Source: an uncultured virus (IMG/VR IMGVR_UViG_3300029305_011880) (taxonomy: Duplodnaviria; Heunggongvirae; Uroviricota; Caudoviricetes). Taken from it: a stretch of 53,547 nucleotides of DNA. Numbering within the stretch: the stretch's first letter is position 1; each line of letters begins with the position of its first letter. Position numbers and translations under genes: made by a program. The stretch is taken from the IMG/VR virus record IMGVR_UViG_3300029305_011880, one strand, 5' to 3'. The notes beneath the pieces are model-generated. The model saw only the letters and a list, made by a program, of their open reading frames with translations, searched no databases and was not told the DNA's origin. Positions 41,353 through 49,538 of the stretch are shown piece by piece.

Positions 41353-41442
41353 TTATTTAATAATGTAAAAACCACCGTTAAAAAACGGTGGTTTTATTTT
41401 TTTCAAAAAAAAGAGACTCGCATTCGTGCGAGTCTCAATATG

Positions 41443-42666
41443 TTACCGATTGTAAATCTTATCTGCCTCATCCTTCTTAAGCTGAGCCTTAGAACCAAGT
41501 AGTCCCAGACCAACGGAAGGGTTAAGGTCAAATATATCACAAAAAGCGCTAACACGAGAATCAGGATACCCTCTACGCTTTAGAAGTGTCATGGCTTCGA
41601 GCATGGAAAATCTACGAGGCTGCAGAATGCTTTCCTCATCATAGCCCATATCATGAGCCAAAGAAAGATATTCTTTGAATCGGTCAAAGACTCTTCCTTG
41701 ATACTGCATTCCATGACGTTTCATAAACTTAGCAAGAAGAACCAGAGTTTTTTCGCTCTGACCATCGGACCAGCTCAAAATACTCCGAATCGTCTGAAGA
41801 GTGATGGTCTTGTGCTCCAAACAACTCTTCATTGTGCGCTGCAATTCGATAGGAAGAGCATGCAGCTTAGCGGGTTCAATCTTATCTTCAGAACTTCTGT
41901 AATAGTAGTACGAATAGCTAAAACTGTCAGAAGCGTAGTATGCGGCGTAGTCTTCAGGAAGCCCCATAAGAGCCCAGAACTCTTTCATAGTTAGACAAGT
42001 GTTCCCAGGAAACGGGTCACTGCGATTCCACTCATTACGATTGAAGGATTCCTTAAAAAATCTTGCATACTTGGCGATATTCTCATCGGTTAGAAGATGC
42101 ATAACACAAGGATATCCAATCAATTTATAAGCCATGGCAAGATAATTGTTCCCGCCCCAAATACCAGAAGATACTCTTACGGCGTCCAAAATGGTATCTC
42201 TAATAGCTTCATCAGTAATCTCACCAATATGCTCGATGAGGTATTTAGTGATGTCGATATCATTATTGATACTCACACGAGGACGATTCTTGTAATCGAG
42301 CTTCCATAGGTCGACTTCGAGAGTAGAAAAATCCTCATAAGCAAGATTCAACTGCTTAGCGGAAGTTTCGAAAACCTTCAAAGCGGTTTCGATGATTTCA
42401 AAACCAGAACCGATAGGACGAATCACAGGTTCCTTAGACTTGATATAAACGGGCACAGAGCTTCTACTCCAATTATTAGCAGAAACAAAAACCCAATGCT
42501 TGTTACCGCACTTAGGACAGGTATCAATATCTCCCTTATCAACCCATCCACAAGCACAAACATGACGAGTATCCTTCCCGTCATTTACATTGATAGTAAT
42601 ACCTTCGATACCCATTTCAGTGAGATAATGGGTATTGGTACACGAATTAAAAATTCTTACAGCCAT
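41443..42666 (-). CDS. Zn-ribbon partner protein, module 3
   Basis: CACG..CPKCG; paralogous to 44155..45324 and 46875..48020. Confidence 0.85.
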   Translation of the reverse strand: MAVRIFNSCTNTHYLTEMGIEGITINVNDGKDTRHVCACGWVDKGDIDTCPKCGNKHWVFVSANNWSRSSVPVYIKSKEPVIRPIGSGFEIIETALKVFETSAKQLNLAYEDFSTLEVDLWKLDYKNRPRVSINNDIDITKYLIEHIGEITDEAIRDTILDAVRVSSGIWGGNNYLAMAYKLIGYPCVMHLLTDENIAKYARFFKESFNRNEWNRSDPFPGNTCLTMKEFWALMGLPEDYAAYYASDSFSYSYYYYRSSEDKIEPAKLHALPIELQRTMKSCLEHKTITLQTIRSILSWSDGQSEKTLVLLAKFMKRHGMQYQGRVFDRFKEYLSLAHDMGYDEESILQPRRFSMLEAMTLLKRRGYPDSRVSAFCDIFDLNPSVGLGLLGSKAQLKKDEADKIYNR

Positions 42667-42686
42667 GTTTTTTCTCCTCCATTTTG

Positions 42687-46896: not shown

Positions 46897-48020
46897 GTCC
46901 AAACGAGTAACTGCTTCAACGCAGGAACGATTCCTTGAGATTCTCGAATCTGATGGAATTCATCTGCTTCAGCCGTTCCAAACCGCTCTGCAAACATATC
47001 AACATTCTTCATCCCGAAACAGAACTTAGAGTTGATAGTATCTTCATTTGTGGGAAACTTCTTTTCCTCAACATATTTAAAAGTTTGTACAGCCTTTCCA
47101 AAAACTGCGTCACCCATCCACAAGTTCTTCTTGACATACGTCAGGAAATAATTGATTTTGTTTCTAGAATCCCAGAACGAAACATCAAAAGTATCCAGGT
47201 AAGTCTTGATAGTTCTTCTTGTGAATTTGCCAGAACCAATGTAATATGCGAAGCACCCCTGAATTTCTATGGGATGTGAATCCAAAAGTCTAATATCCGA
47301 ATACCCATCAATCTTCGAGAAATACGGGTCTTTGGTGTAATCGACTAAACATTCAGGAATTTCAAAGTATTCACAAATACCGTTTACAGAATCGATTTTA
47401 CCATTACCATAACTACGATTGATTACATGTCTAATCAATGCAGTATGAGATTCTACAAATTTCTCATCTTCGAAGAGCTTGTGCCCCCGAACATCAATCA
47501 TCGAAACATACTTATTTAAGGAGGCCCAGTTATGATAGTTACAAACTTTACAAAGCTTTAATATCTTCATAAGCCTGTCACACTGAACATTATTGGCTTC
47601 CAAAATGTTAAGCACATCCGAAATAGCGATTTCGTTAACCCCATATGTCATAGTAAAAGTAAATGAGTTGTCTTTTACTGACATAAATTCGATTGGTCTC
47701 TTAAAAAATTTTATAGCGCCAGTCTCTTTGATGATGGAACCAATGAGCTCGTAATAGAACAAAATCTTTGCGCCGTCTTCCTCTCTGATGAAGAGACGAC
47801 CAGAATCTTTAACCAAGATATTTTCGCCAGTTTCCATTGAATGGTAAACTCGCTTTTTTTTGTCTTCTCTCTTACACGAACAAGGATTTTCTGCATCCGA
47901 AACTGTATTGCAATCGGCACAAATAATACGGTCGCAACGATAATTAATCGTAGTTTCAATATGAGAAATATTAAACTCCTTAAGAAGTTCAATACCCTCA
48001 GCTGCCATATACTTCTTCAT
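46875..48020 (-). CDS. Zn-ribbon partner protein, module 1
   Basis: CADC..CSC; EIPE..DY and HPIEIQ motifs shared with the paralogues. Confidence 0.8.
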   Translation of the reverse strand: MKKYMAAEGIELLKEFNISHIETTINYRCDRIICADCNTVSDAENPCSCKREDKKKRVYHSMETGENILVKDSGRLFIREEDGAKILFYYELIGSIIKETGAIKFFKRPIEFMSVKDNSFTFTMTYGVNEIAISDVLNILEANNVQCDRLMKILKLCKVCNYHNWASLNKYVSMIDVRGHKLFEDEKFVESHTALIRHVINRSYGNGKIDSVNGICEYFEIPECLVDYTKDPYFSKIDGYSDIRLLDSHPIEIQGCFAYYIGSGKFTRRTIKTYLDTFDVSFWDSRNKINYFLTYVKKNLWMGDAVFGKAVQTFKYVEEKKFPTNEDTINSKFCFGMKNVDMFAERFGTAEADEFHQIRESQGIVPALKQLLVWTNKNEGV

Positions 48021-49383
48021 ATTTCTTTTCCCTCCATTTTGTTAGGAACTTAAGAACTTCGTTGTTCTCAGACTCCTCTTCTGTTTCAACGATATCAGCA
48101 TCATATTTTCCCTTAATCTGAACGAATTCTCCATCCTCAGAAACCTCAAAAGACACAAAAGATTCCTTAAGATTTTCGGTTTTTCTCAAGAACAGAACGA
48201 TTGTACCAGTACAAACAAGGTCAACATAATTTGCGATACAATGGTGCATTTGCATACCCTCATCAATCATCGCGCCAATCGAATCAGGAACAACGACTGA
48301 ATAAGTTTTTCCCTTATATTCCAAATTCCTATATTTCGCAACAGCTTTCTTAAACTCTTCATTCTTTGCTTCGTCATCTGCATAGCAAACGTTATTCTGA
48401 ATGTAAAAGTGTGCTGCACGAAGATTCGACGGTAGAGGGTCAACCTCAAGCCCATGCTTTTTGGCAATGGCAAGATAATCTCTCATCGCAATAGCTTCAG
48501 AATAAGGCATCATAATGCCCATACCAATTTCGTTGTAATAAAACTGCTGAGTATGCAAATAATTGATAATTACCTTCATACTGGACTTAACCATAAGTGC
48601 GATATCAATGACGCTCTCAACGAAAGAATTTCTAGCACCATTACTGATTAGACTGGTCTGCACCTCAACTTGGCGTAACAAGGCCATATATTCGACCAAG
48701 AACACGGTATCATTGACATCCTTTGTTTCTGCAAGTTCCTTAAATTTGCCATAAAGAGAAGAATAAGAACTGTCTTTCAGGAAATCGATGACTGCCGAAG
48801 GCAATCCTAACACCTGTCTCAACTTCTTTTTGTCATTCTGAAGACCCATATCTCCCTTGCAGATATTATCTACAAAAAAAGCTAGCGAACAACCAGTGAA
48901 CACTTTTTCCAGAGAAATAAGCCCATTGTTTAAGATATTCTCAAAAACATTCATGGACACGTTGTATTCCGCATTTCTACGACTTCTATTGACTCTATCA
49001 GCAAAGTTCTCATCAAAGAAAAAGAGTTTATACAGACATTCGTTCTTAATCATGGAATCTCGCAGGAAATTCACAATAGGGTTAATATCTACAATATTAT
49101 TGTAGACTGCATGCATGAAGGTGAGCCCATCGCCAGTGGTATATTCACCATCATCGTTAAAACTTGCGATTAGTCGAGGTTCAACTTCTTTGAAGAAGAT
49201 AACCTTTTCATTTCGTGTAAAATCCAATTTGTAAAGGAATAACTCGTTGCCAACGTACTTCGTAGTCCAAAGCCCCAAATTTTCATCTTCATCGATATTT
49301 ACATCTGATGGATTGTTGAAAATATAAGAAAGACTATTGTATCTAGCCAACGTGGAATATCCTTTCTTAATCCAAATAGCCAT
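47998..49383 (-). CDS. PcfJ-domain protein, module 1
   Basis: DEGMQMHHCIANY..VLFLRK..SFVSFE..QIKGKYD. Confidence 0.85.
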   Translation of the reverse strand: MAIWIKKGYSTLARYNSLSYIFNNPSDVNIDEDENLGLWTTKYVGNELFLYKLDFTRNEKVIFFKEVEPRLIASFNDDGEYTTGDGLTFMHAVYNNIVDINPIVNFLRDSMIKNECLYKLFFFDENFADRVNRSRRNAEYNVSMNVFENILNNGLISLEKVFTGCSLAFFVDNICKGDMGLQNDKKKLRQVLGLPSAVIDFLKDSSYSSLYGKFKELAETKDVNDTVFLVEYMALLRQVEVQTSLISNGARNSFVESVIDIALMVKSSMKVIINYLHTQQFYYNEIGMGIMMPYSEAIAMRDYLAIAKKHGLEVDPLPSNLRAAHFYIQNNVCYADDEAKNEEFKKAVAKYRNLEYKGKTYSVVVPDSIGAMIDEGMQMHHCIANYVDLVCTGTIVLFLRKTENLKESFVSFEVSEDGEFVQIKGKYDADIVETEEESENNEVLKFLTKWREKKYEEVYGS

Positions 49384-49538
49384 TTATTTTCCTCCCATTT
49401 AATATTTTTGTAGGTCTTATTTATATTATATAAAAAACAATTATCAACAATAATTTGTTAATCACTTTTTTATTGTCTTTATCCTTTTTATGTGATATAA
49501 TGTTTTTAGATAAAACATTACAGAAAGGAATTAAATAG

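Follow-up and report, generated by a model that had tools for sequence, protein, structure and literature searches.

Three diverged pairs of PcfJ-family and partner genes in an uncultured virus record, and a predicted two-subunit complex

An uncultured virus record in IMG/VR, IMGVR_UViG_3300029305_011880 (Caudoviricetes; 53,547 nucleotides, the whole of which is called the window here), carries on its minus strand an array of three tandem two-gene cassettes. In each cassette, the first gene (A) encodes a protein of the PcfJ family, and the second (B) encodes a partner with a predicted zinc ribbon; the pairs are numbered 1 to 3 along the minus strand. Judged by sequence comparison, the pairs are real, ancient, and diverged. 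Structure prediction indicates that A and B probably assemble into a heterodimer. Within such a complex, B is tentatively assigned the role of a specificity or regulatory subunit, with a task in establishment or counter-defence after transfer, a combined reading that falls somewhat short of evenly balanced.

Mobile DNA of Gram-positive bacteria often carries PcfJ-like genes, and a literature search, with subscription journals outside its reach, found no functional study of PcfJ. An earlier sequence-only reading of the window had not recognized the array as a described system; this view stands, with the PcfK–PcfJ pair of pCF10-type plasmids as the nearest annotated analogue. With three natural diverged pairs, confident models, a predicted interface, and candidate catalytic residues, the array is a clean entry point. 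If B sets the target of A, the same logic may explain the partners of PcfJ elsewhere, including the AcrIIA9/PcfK anti-CRISPR family.

Organization of the array

The three minus-strand pairs described from the DNA letters correspond exactly to six open reading frames (ORFs). A1 (461 amino acids [aa]; 47998–49383) is followed by B1 (381 aa; 46875–48020), which overlaps the A1 stop by 23 bp. A2 (477 aa; 45339–46772) is followed after 14 bp by B2 (389 aa; 44155–45324), and A3 (449 aa; 42687–44036) is followed after 20 bp by B3 (407 aa; 41443–42666). The intra-pair gaps are therefore −23, 14, and 20 bp, and the inter-pair gaps are 102 and 118 bp. All six genes, beginning with A1, have a GGAGG ribosome site 7–9 bases before the ATG. 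Six-frame searches with hidden Markov models (HMMs) find exactly three copies of A and three of B in the window.

Each pair also has its own terminator-like signal, as had been noticed from the sequence. These minus-strand hairpins are long and GC-rich, are followed by a T-run, and lie immediately 3ʹ of each B gene: at 46857–46896 after B1 (18 pairs), at 44115–44156 after B2 (19 pairs), and at 41413–41436 after B3 (10 pairs, then T8). A plus-strand hairpin at 41368–41395 faces the B3 terminator, so that the array appears closed off from the pilin genes downstream. The accompanying claim, that every pair has its own promoter-like leader, finds no confirmation. A promoter consensus scan found 16 sites where shuffled sequence gives an expectation of 25.4 ± 5.5, which is fewer than chance, and only one weak minus-strand site (46841–46814) lies upstream of an A gene.

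The array differs from its surroundings in base composition, with a guanine–cytosine (GC) content of 0.41–0.42 (42001–46000) against mostly 0.28–0.36 elsewhere in the window. The whole stretch is spanned by one contig of one sequencing run (X1), perhaps that of the source sample, and other runs contribute short, low-depth, identical pieces. Candidate joints of copy-number variants, sought in metagenome contigs of four runs, were set aside as untrustworthy because their sides were 20–25 letters long, AT-rich, and matched at 85% likeness.

The A proteins and their PcfJ core

Membership of the A proteins in the PcfJ family, first recognized by eye, is borne out by Pfam. The PcfJ model (PF14284; curated cut-off 25 bits) matches the C-terminal third of all three proteins: A1 at E 1.4e-19 and 70.8 bits (residues 301–435), A2 at E 2.8e-20 and 73.1 bits, and A3 at E 4.5e-17 and 62.6 bits. 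The matches run from profile positions 2–3 to 137–142 of 147 in A1 and A2 and from 23 to 138 of 147 in A3. A longer phage family, phrog_3169, matches at E 1e-35 to 3e-38 overall (A1, E 1.5e-36; A3, E 3e-38 over residues 105–446). The three proteins are paralogues by BLASTP (A1–A3, E 2.8e-38; A1–A2, E 1e-27; A2–A3, E 6e-37).

The motifs quoted in the sequence-only reading prove to be invariant columns of the A alignment. In A1 numbering, they fall into a first block (N173, I174, D178, L181, N183, K186, K187, L188, V191, and P195), a second block (P293, S295, E296, D302, and Y303), and the PcfJ core (E375, G376, H380, H381, C382, A384, and Y386). The most divergent part is the N-terminal ~100 residues, where paralogues are 12–14% identical, in agreement with the divergent N-termini noted before. 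The same gradient is evident among orthologues of A2, which are 96–48% identical: evolution is fastest in the N-terminal domain and slowest in the core (e.g., 34% versus 63–82% conserved). Across 23 members, the invariant or near-invariant A2 positions cluster in the core (E399, G400, L403, H405, C406, A408, Y410, R425, T436, N452, and D454).

An AlphaFold2 model of A2 built from this 23-sequence alignment has a predicted local distance difference test (pLDDT) score of 87.5 and a predicted template modelling (pTM) score of 0.63. It consists of an N-terminal beta domain (1–101), a helical scaffold (104–372), and an alpha/beta PcfJ core (385–476) in which a strand, two helices, three strands, and a helix are predicted in that order. 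Foldseek found no match for the model in the PDB at E ≤ 0.001, and sequence profiles of A and B found nothing significant there. In an exhaustive VIA search, 46 of the 50 listed rows are chains of the GNAT (GCN5-related N-acetyltransferase) superfamily, with a root-mean-square deviation of 2.9–4.3 Å and Z 5.4–7.2, values below 8 that, VIA warns, may reflect a common arrangement only. These alignments place A2 354–477 on the first 110–130 residues of the GNAT chains, with 83–106 residues aligned. The remaining four rows are designed helical repeats that match the scaffold.

The suggestion that PcfJ is GNAT-like holds in part. Likeness at the level of the fold is indicated, modestly and from models, for about half of the GNAT fold only; the A2 model stops after the helix that follows the fourth strand. 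The A core differs from the superfamily in its conserved residues as well: the Glu, His-His-Cys, Tyr, Arg, Asn, and Asp are not GNAT hallmarks. One hallmark of the GNAT fold is a glycine-rich loop after beta4 that binds coenzyme A (CoA), and in the complete fold a mixed sheet splays between beta4 and beta5 to hold the cofactor.

The B proteins and their family

Sequence comparison places B1–B3 in a rare, previously undescribed protein family. None of them belongs to a Pfam, PHROG, or NCBIfam family, and zinc-ribbon Pfam models match only below their cut-offs (E 0.036–0.22). Their mutual homology, proposed from shared motifs, is confirmed for B2–B3 over the full length (E 1e-12) and for B1–B2 over the C-terminal 105 residues (E 2e-9); B1 and B3 do not match each other significantly (E 0.30), and only B2 and the family profile connect them. 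In the B1–B3 alignment, the columns of the Cys cluster and of the PE and P.E motifs do not vary, and, as had been stated, the PcfJ core is lacking: the PcfJ Pfam model has no match in any B at E ≤ 1. The C-terminal part is the best conserved part of B.

A B1–B3 profile searched against 1.84 billion representatives found 39 proteins, most of 365–453 aa, with 20 at E ≤ 1e-10 and 12 at E ≤ 1e-30. Pfam was scanned with 29 of these matches; the other ten are B1 itself (P0001) and nine proteins that are shorter or fragmentary. A single Pfam family scored above its cut-off, TsaD in a 287-aa protein that is likely a chimera, and no PcfJ domain occurred in the 29. Because the profile search covered every protein length, fusions with a recognizable B part would have surfaced, and no A–B fusion was seen. 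B1 scores 315.6 bits against the family HMM, a profile that contains B1 itself. A tree of 34 members puts B1, B2, and B3 in separate, well-supported clades (7, 6, and 5 rows) beside at least three further clades, which suggests that more than three types of B exist in nature.

The N-terminus of B is predicted to be a CxC...CxxC zinc ribbon, with two Cys pairs among short strands. An alignment of 27 members has no variation at C34, C47, and C50 and almost none at R31, C36, and G37. The AlphaFold2 model of B2, from 27 sequences, reaches a pLDDT of 91.1 and a pTM of 0.78. It has a ribbon-bearing beta domain (1–106) and an all-helical region (116–388), and its C-terminus is without a beta/alpha core. 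The model has no Foldseek match in the PDB at E ≤ 0.001. Its best Z in exhaustive VIA is 4.7, for residues 252–351 only, with the ribbon domain barely covered, and the ESM Atlas yields leads only (feature scores ≤ 0.80, structure template modelling [TM] scores ≤ 0.33).

The idea that A and B are halves of a split PcfJ is not supported by these results: A has the whole PcfJ domain, B ends without the core, and none of the 39 B-family matches is a fusion.

Several candidate relationships of these proteins were discarded. The PADLOC family PDC-S51 matches one of 27 B members (E 4.8e-4), a hit probably due to chance. Kinship of A or B with PcfK finds no support in hhalign, with probabilities of 0.1–0.2%, or in Pfam, where PcfK matches none of the six proteins at E ≤ 1. 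An acidic C-terminal tail of the single-stranded DNA-binding protein type is absent from all six translations.

One match of the B profile, P0033 (867 aa), has four stretches found by the profile, repeats of ~90 residues that resemble the B segment 'P.EI...F..NG.I'; this segment may be a mobile helical module. The N-terminus of P0033 has a weak toxin-deaminase match below the cut-off (E 0.0054).

Prediction of an A–B complex

That A and B are cognate partners was suspected from their adjacency, and complex prediction agrees for A2 and B2. The interaction prediction score from aligned errors (ipSAE) was 0.68, 0.70, and 0.71 in three runs, against 0.00 for the best control. The runs have at least 83% of contacts in common, and the partner pLDDT is at least 83. 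Of the 157 solved complexes in a calibration of the ipSAE mark, 116 reach it, as do 2 of the 215 mismatched pairs, figures that are a rough guide here, as custom alignments were used. Since searches of the PDB show no similar solved complex, it is unlikely that A2–B2 passes because the predictor had memorized a known structure. A heterodimer of A and B is, on these models, probable.

In the predicted interface, A2 residues 249–309, 344–354, 406, 409–410, and 413 meet B2 residues 269–272, 302–307, and 335–378. The contact group at A2 406–413 is the helix that bears the conserved Cys406 and Tyr410. Interface residues of B2 are 64% identical in four orthologues, compared with 47% for the rest of the region, and 23% identical among paralogues. 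For A2, the figures are 69% versus 66% in orthologues and 18% among paralogues. This modelled pattern, kept in orthologues and diverged among paralogues, fits dedicated, pair-specific partners.

The models of A and B also have their parts in like order: a beta domain of ~100 residues, helices to ~190–200, a linker, and a second helical region. In a search of BFVD with the B2 model, seven of the 30 top rows are named PcfJ-like (ranks 2, 3, 4, 6, 8, 12, and 29) over 305–461 columns; these rows are weak, at E 0.0066–0.3 and TM 0.17–0.29. Alignment of A with B by hhalign is not significant, with a probability of 0.9% for a close A alignment, or 1% once the core is taken out. Broadening the alignment to 27 PcfJ proteins (430–520 aa) raises the probability to 6% (E 0.006), which is likewise not significant, and the alignment is colinear over 110 columns, A2 208–336 on B2 203–330. 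Whether B is a core-less distant cousin of the PcfJ scaffold is, on the BFVD rows and hhalign, about evenly balanced. Enzyme–pseudoenzyme heterodimers offer a comparison. The A–B pair is like them in part order, in the PcfJ-like BFVD rows for B, and in predicted binding; it is unlike them in that homology of A and B is without statistical support and that B has a zinc ribbon and A has none.

Conservation of the pairs

Homologues of B are rare. A tblastn search with B2 against plasmids and phages gave no match, and a scan with the B2-group alignment gave nothing in IMG/VR or in species-representative genomes and a single locus, L001, in metagenome contigs. In L001, every copy of the array is preserved in its place as far as the contig reaches, which is 2.5 pairs. 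From that end, it encodes the C-terminal 164 aa of a B1-like protein (35% identical to B1), an A2-like protein (50.5%), a B2-like protein (33%; 4-bp gap after the A2-like gene), an A3-like protein (44%), and a B3-like protein (34%; 2-bp gap after the A3-like gene). Each of these proteins best matches its positional counterpart, which indicates that the triplication is older than the split of the two elements and that all copies were retained. The genes beyond the array are, as in the window, three pilin-like ORFs and one for a coupling protein.

The B-family HMM was also run on 94 further PcfJ loci, 14 from genomes and 80 from IMG/VR. Its only match there is in L019, where a 470-aa PcfJ gene is followed after a 3-bp gap by a B gene (408 aa; E 1.4e-49); this 18.4-kb contig has a single PcfJ match. 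B is thus seen in 2 of 98 PcfJ loci, each time directly after the PcfJ gene, and the other 96 are without it. The A–B adjacency is accordingly kept in both B-bearing loci outside the window, and pair copy number ranges from one to three. Relative to the PcfJ family, named after PcfJ of Enterococcus faecalis pCF10, A1–A3 are alike in the model match, the E-G...H-H-C...Y signature, and the location on a mobile element. They differ in standing as three diverged copies in tandem and in having, downstream of every copy, a dedicated B that is absent from the other 96 loci.

The whole contig of L019 (L100) is classed as viral in IMG/VR, with 10% completeness. Between 8596 and 17307, it encodes an N6/N4 DNA methylase, an L,D-transpeptidase, an enzyme of the CCA-adding/poly(A) polymerase type, a 5ʹ–3ʹ exonuclease, and an RlaP-type nucleotidyltransferase.

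Partners of PcfJ in other elements

Searches for PcfJ homologues turned up 306 phage records (from Bacillus, Enterococcus, Listeria, and others) and 582 plasmid records, of which 531 are from Enterococcus. On two enterococcal-type plasmids (L003 and L004), the PcfJ gene overlaps an upstream PcfK gene by one base. This gene encodes 259–287 aa with the Pfam PcfK domain (PF14058) and is annotated as a Cas9 inhibitor of the AcrIIA9 family; a passage in PMC6739104 places a PcfK domain in AcrIIA9. The PcfK–PcfJ pair resembles the array in that a PcfJ gene is tightly coupled to one partner. It differs in that the partner is upstream, 259–287 aa long, and of the PcfK family, whereas in the array it is downstream, 381–407 aa long, and bears a zinc ribbon.

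In 41 of the 96 other PcfJ loci, a same-strand ORF of at least 280 aa lies within 120 bp downstream. These ORFs belong to four unrelated families: an unnamed family of 420–458 aa (26 loci), DUF3102 (7 loci), DUF5131 (6 loci), and DnaN (2 loci). Upstream neighbours include PcfK, DUF7666, and gp30.3. Such recurrent tight neighbours suggest that PcfJ often travels with a tight, exchangeable partner, of which B would be one, specific to a small clade. The phage loci examined adjoin genes for gyrase/topoisomerase, ribonucleotide reductase, Mom, and DnaN.

Two side observations concern these neighbours. In the 26 IMG/VR loci with the unnamed family (e.g., L027, L035–L056, and L066–L071), the gene for the 420–458 aa protein comes next after that for a PcfJ protein of 655–720 aa, with −1 to 3 bp between them, and a DUF7666 protein often precedes PcfJ; this is an undescribed tight module unrelated to B. 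In phage-like DNA, PcfJ adjoins a gene of the Mom DNA-modification family (E 3.8e-54) or of the T4 gp30.3 family (E 5.7e-52), at L021:6842–7594 and L025:4532–5035, respectively.

Possible function and alternative explanations

In the proposed explanation, each cassette would give rise to a two-subunit A–B complex, with B translated from the transcript of A right after A. A would join a fast-evolving N-terminal beta domain and a helical scaffold to a slow-evolving C-terminal PcfJ core. The predicted core topology, beta1-alpha1-alpha2-beta2-beta3-beta4-alpha3, is the first half of a GNAT fold; the core carries the conserved stretch E-G-x-x-L-H-H-C-x-A-x-Y along with an Arg that never varies and an Asn and an Asp that hardly do. 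B would consist of an N-terminal beta domain with the four-Cys ribbon and of helical domains after it, and is perhaps a cousin of the PcfJ scaffold that lacks the core. Its C-terminal helical bundle is predicted to dock on the A scaffold and on the helix with the conserved Cys and Tyr, a position from which B could gate or aim the conserved site as a regulatory or specificity subunit. The pairs would stem from old duplications. That they are kept one for one in a relative at 33–50% identity suggests three non-redundant specificities and not a recent amplification.

What the complexes do in the cell is a guess: they may act on host targets or on targets associated with incoming DNA while the element becomes established in a new cell. 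The guess derives from the place of PcfJ beside a gene of an anti-CRISPR family on plasmids and in DNA-metabolism regions of phages, and this role in establishment or counter-defence, taken by itself, is rather unlikely. Bolder still, and unlikely, is a version in which PcfJ proteins form a novel enzyme class directed at the host, in which an open half-GNAT core bears a His-His-Cys site. Here, the pseudo-paralogue B would dock beside the active site and choose the target, the three enzyme–adaptor complexes would disarm recipient defences, and the PcfJ core enzyme would work with exchangeable partners (B, PcfK/AcrIIA9, DUF3102, DUF5131, DUF7666, and the unnamed 420–458 aa family).

Several points weigh against the proposed explanation. 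The low GNAT Z values and the insignificant A–B comparisons have been given. In addition, no acetyltransferase Pfam family matches the A proteins at E ≤ 1, and the beta4–alpha3 loop of A2, after the strand at 443–449, reads YNVDVTDT and has no glycine-rich CoA motif. The H-H-C stretch could bind a metal or be structural instead of catalytic. The evidence for binding is model confidence for one predicted cognate pair, A2–B2. Bulk DNA binding is not suggested by A being acidic (isoelectric point 5.0–5.3) and B near neutral. The anti-defence idea rests solely on the neighbours of distant homologues. Finally, the array has pilin genes on one side and a prepilin peptidase gene on the other, and in L001, too, pilin-like genes and a coupling protein come after it, which could mean a role in the pilus or in transfer.

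The predicted docking of B next to the conserved site also admits the view that B is an inhibitor. GNAT-fold toxins with cognate antitoxins exist, and each pair could be an independent stability module in which A is a harmful GNAT-like enzyme and B covers the Cys/Tyr helix. The predicted contacts at A2 406, 409–410, and 413 adjoin the H-H-C stretch, coupling of the two genes is tight with a terminator per pair, and the interface is kept in orthologues and diverged among paralogues, all of which would suit a toxin and its inhibitor. However, the 96 of 98 PcfJ loci without a B homologue and the unrelated genes next to phage PcfJ genes indicate that PcfJ does not generally depend on B, and the conserved zinc ribbon of B is far from the interface. 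Type II GNAT toxin–antitoxin systems have a small toxin (about 160–200 aa) and a small DNA-binding antitoxin encoded upstream, whereas here both proteins are large and multi-domain (449–477 and 381–407 aa, 381–477 aa overall) and the gene for the GNAT-like protein, the putative toxin, comes first in each pair. This alternative is improbable.

Diverged cassettes in several copies whose terminal domains evolve fast are a typical mark of conflict systems, and the GC content of the array, higher than in most of the window, would fit acquired cargo. On these grounds, the pairs could defend the element against phages or competing plasmids, or exclude them, with B sensing through its zinc ribbon and A as the effector. 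We consider this a shade less probable again than a toxin and its inhibitor. PADLOC-DB v2 holds no convincing match (for B, only the single PDC-S51 hit described above; for A, none below E 0.019), and the frequency of PcfJ in large phages of lytic type, and on plasmids beside an anti-CRISPR-family gene, puts it on the attacker's side.

An accessory function in a Flp/Tad-like pilus or type IV secretion, such as assembly or substrate recruitment, is suggested by the flanking pilus genes and the nearby coupling protein, in the window as in L001, but is very unlikely given the array's own terminator, the convergent gene and facing terminator that separate it from the pilin genes, the L019 contig with a pair and no pilus or secretion family among 15 ORFs scanned, and the PcfJ homologues in phage records.

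Genomic context

The array sits inside a split pilus gene set. The minus-strand stretch directly downstream (38918–40890) contains an ORF for a Flp-type pilin of 60 aa and three ORFs of 207, 193, and 185 aa that are TadE-like and match no family. On its other side, a prepilin peptidase gene (49539–50087; Peptidase_A24, E 5.7e-8) is on the plus strand, divergent from A1. Further genes encode a VirD4-type type IV coupling protein (36186–38108; 640 aa), closest to plasmid proteins of Priestia, Clostridium, and Bacillus at 32–42% identity, and a HerA/FtsK-like ATPase (33877–35667; 596 aa).

The window additionally encodes topoisomerase III, RecD2, RNase R, an SbcCD-like nuclease, and RecA; the majority of its remaining ORFs match no family. 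No phage structural genes turned up when 29 unannotated ORFs were scanned with PHROG; the sole head-and-packaging match is to a family of terminase large subunits and covers the ATPase part of the HerA/FtsK-like protein. The exact A3 sequence occurs on 15 contigs, the longest of 297,466 bases, and the stretch occurs in runs of animal faecal metagenomes. The host is probably a member of Bacillota, and the element may be a giant plasmid, an integrative and conjugative element, or a huge phage.

Three further features of the window are of minor interest. Neither Pfam nor PHROG has a family for a plus-strand ORF of 1566 aa at 127–4827 (1608 aa from the window edge). Besides the array, one other 2-kb stretch is GC-rich (18001–20000; GC 0.41), in the region of a guanylate kinase. 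In the region 30160–38108, ahead of the HerA/FtsK-like ATPase and the coupling protein, the SbcCD-like nuclease is apparently in pieces, with an 809-aa phosphoesterase and AAA_23 protein and a separate 214-aa ATPase part that corresponds to the SbcC end.

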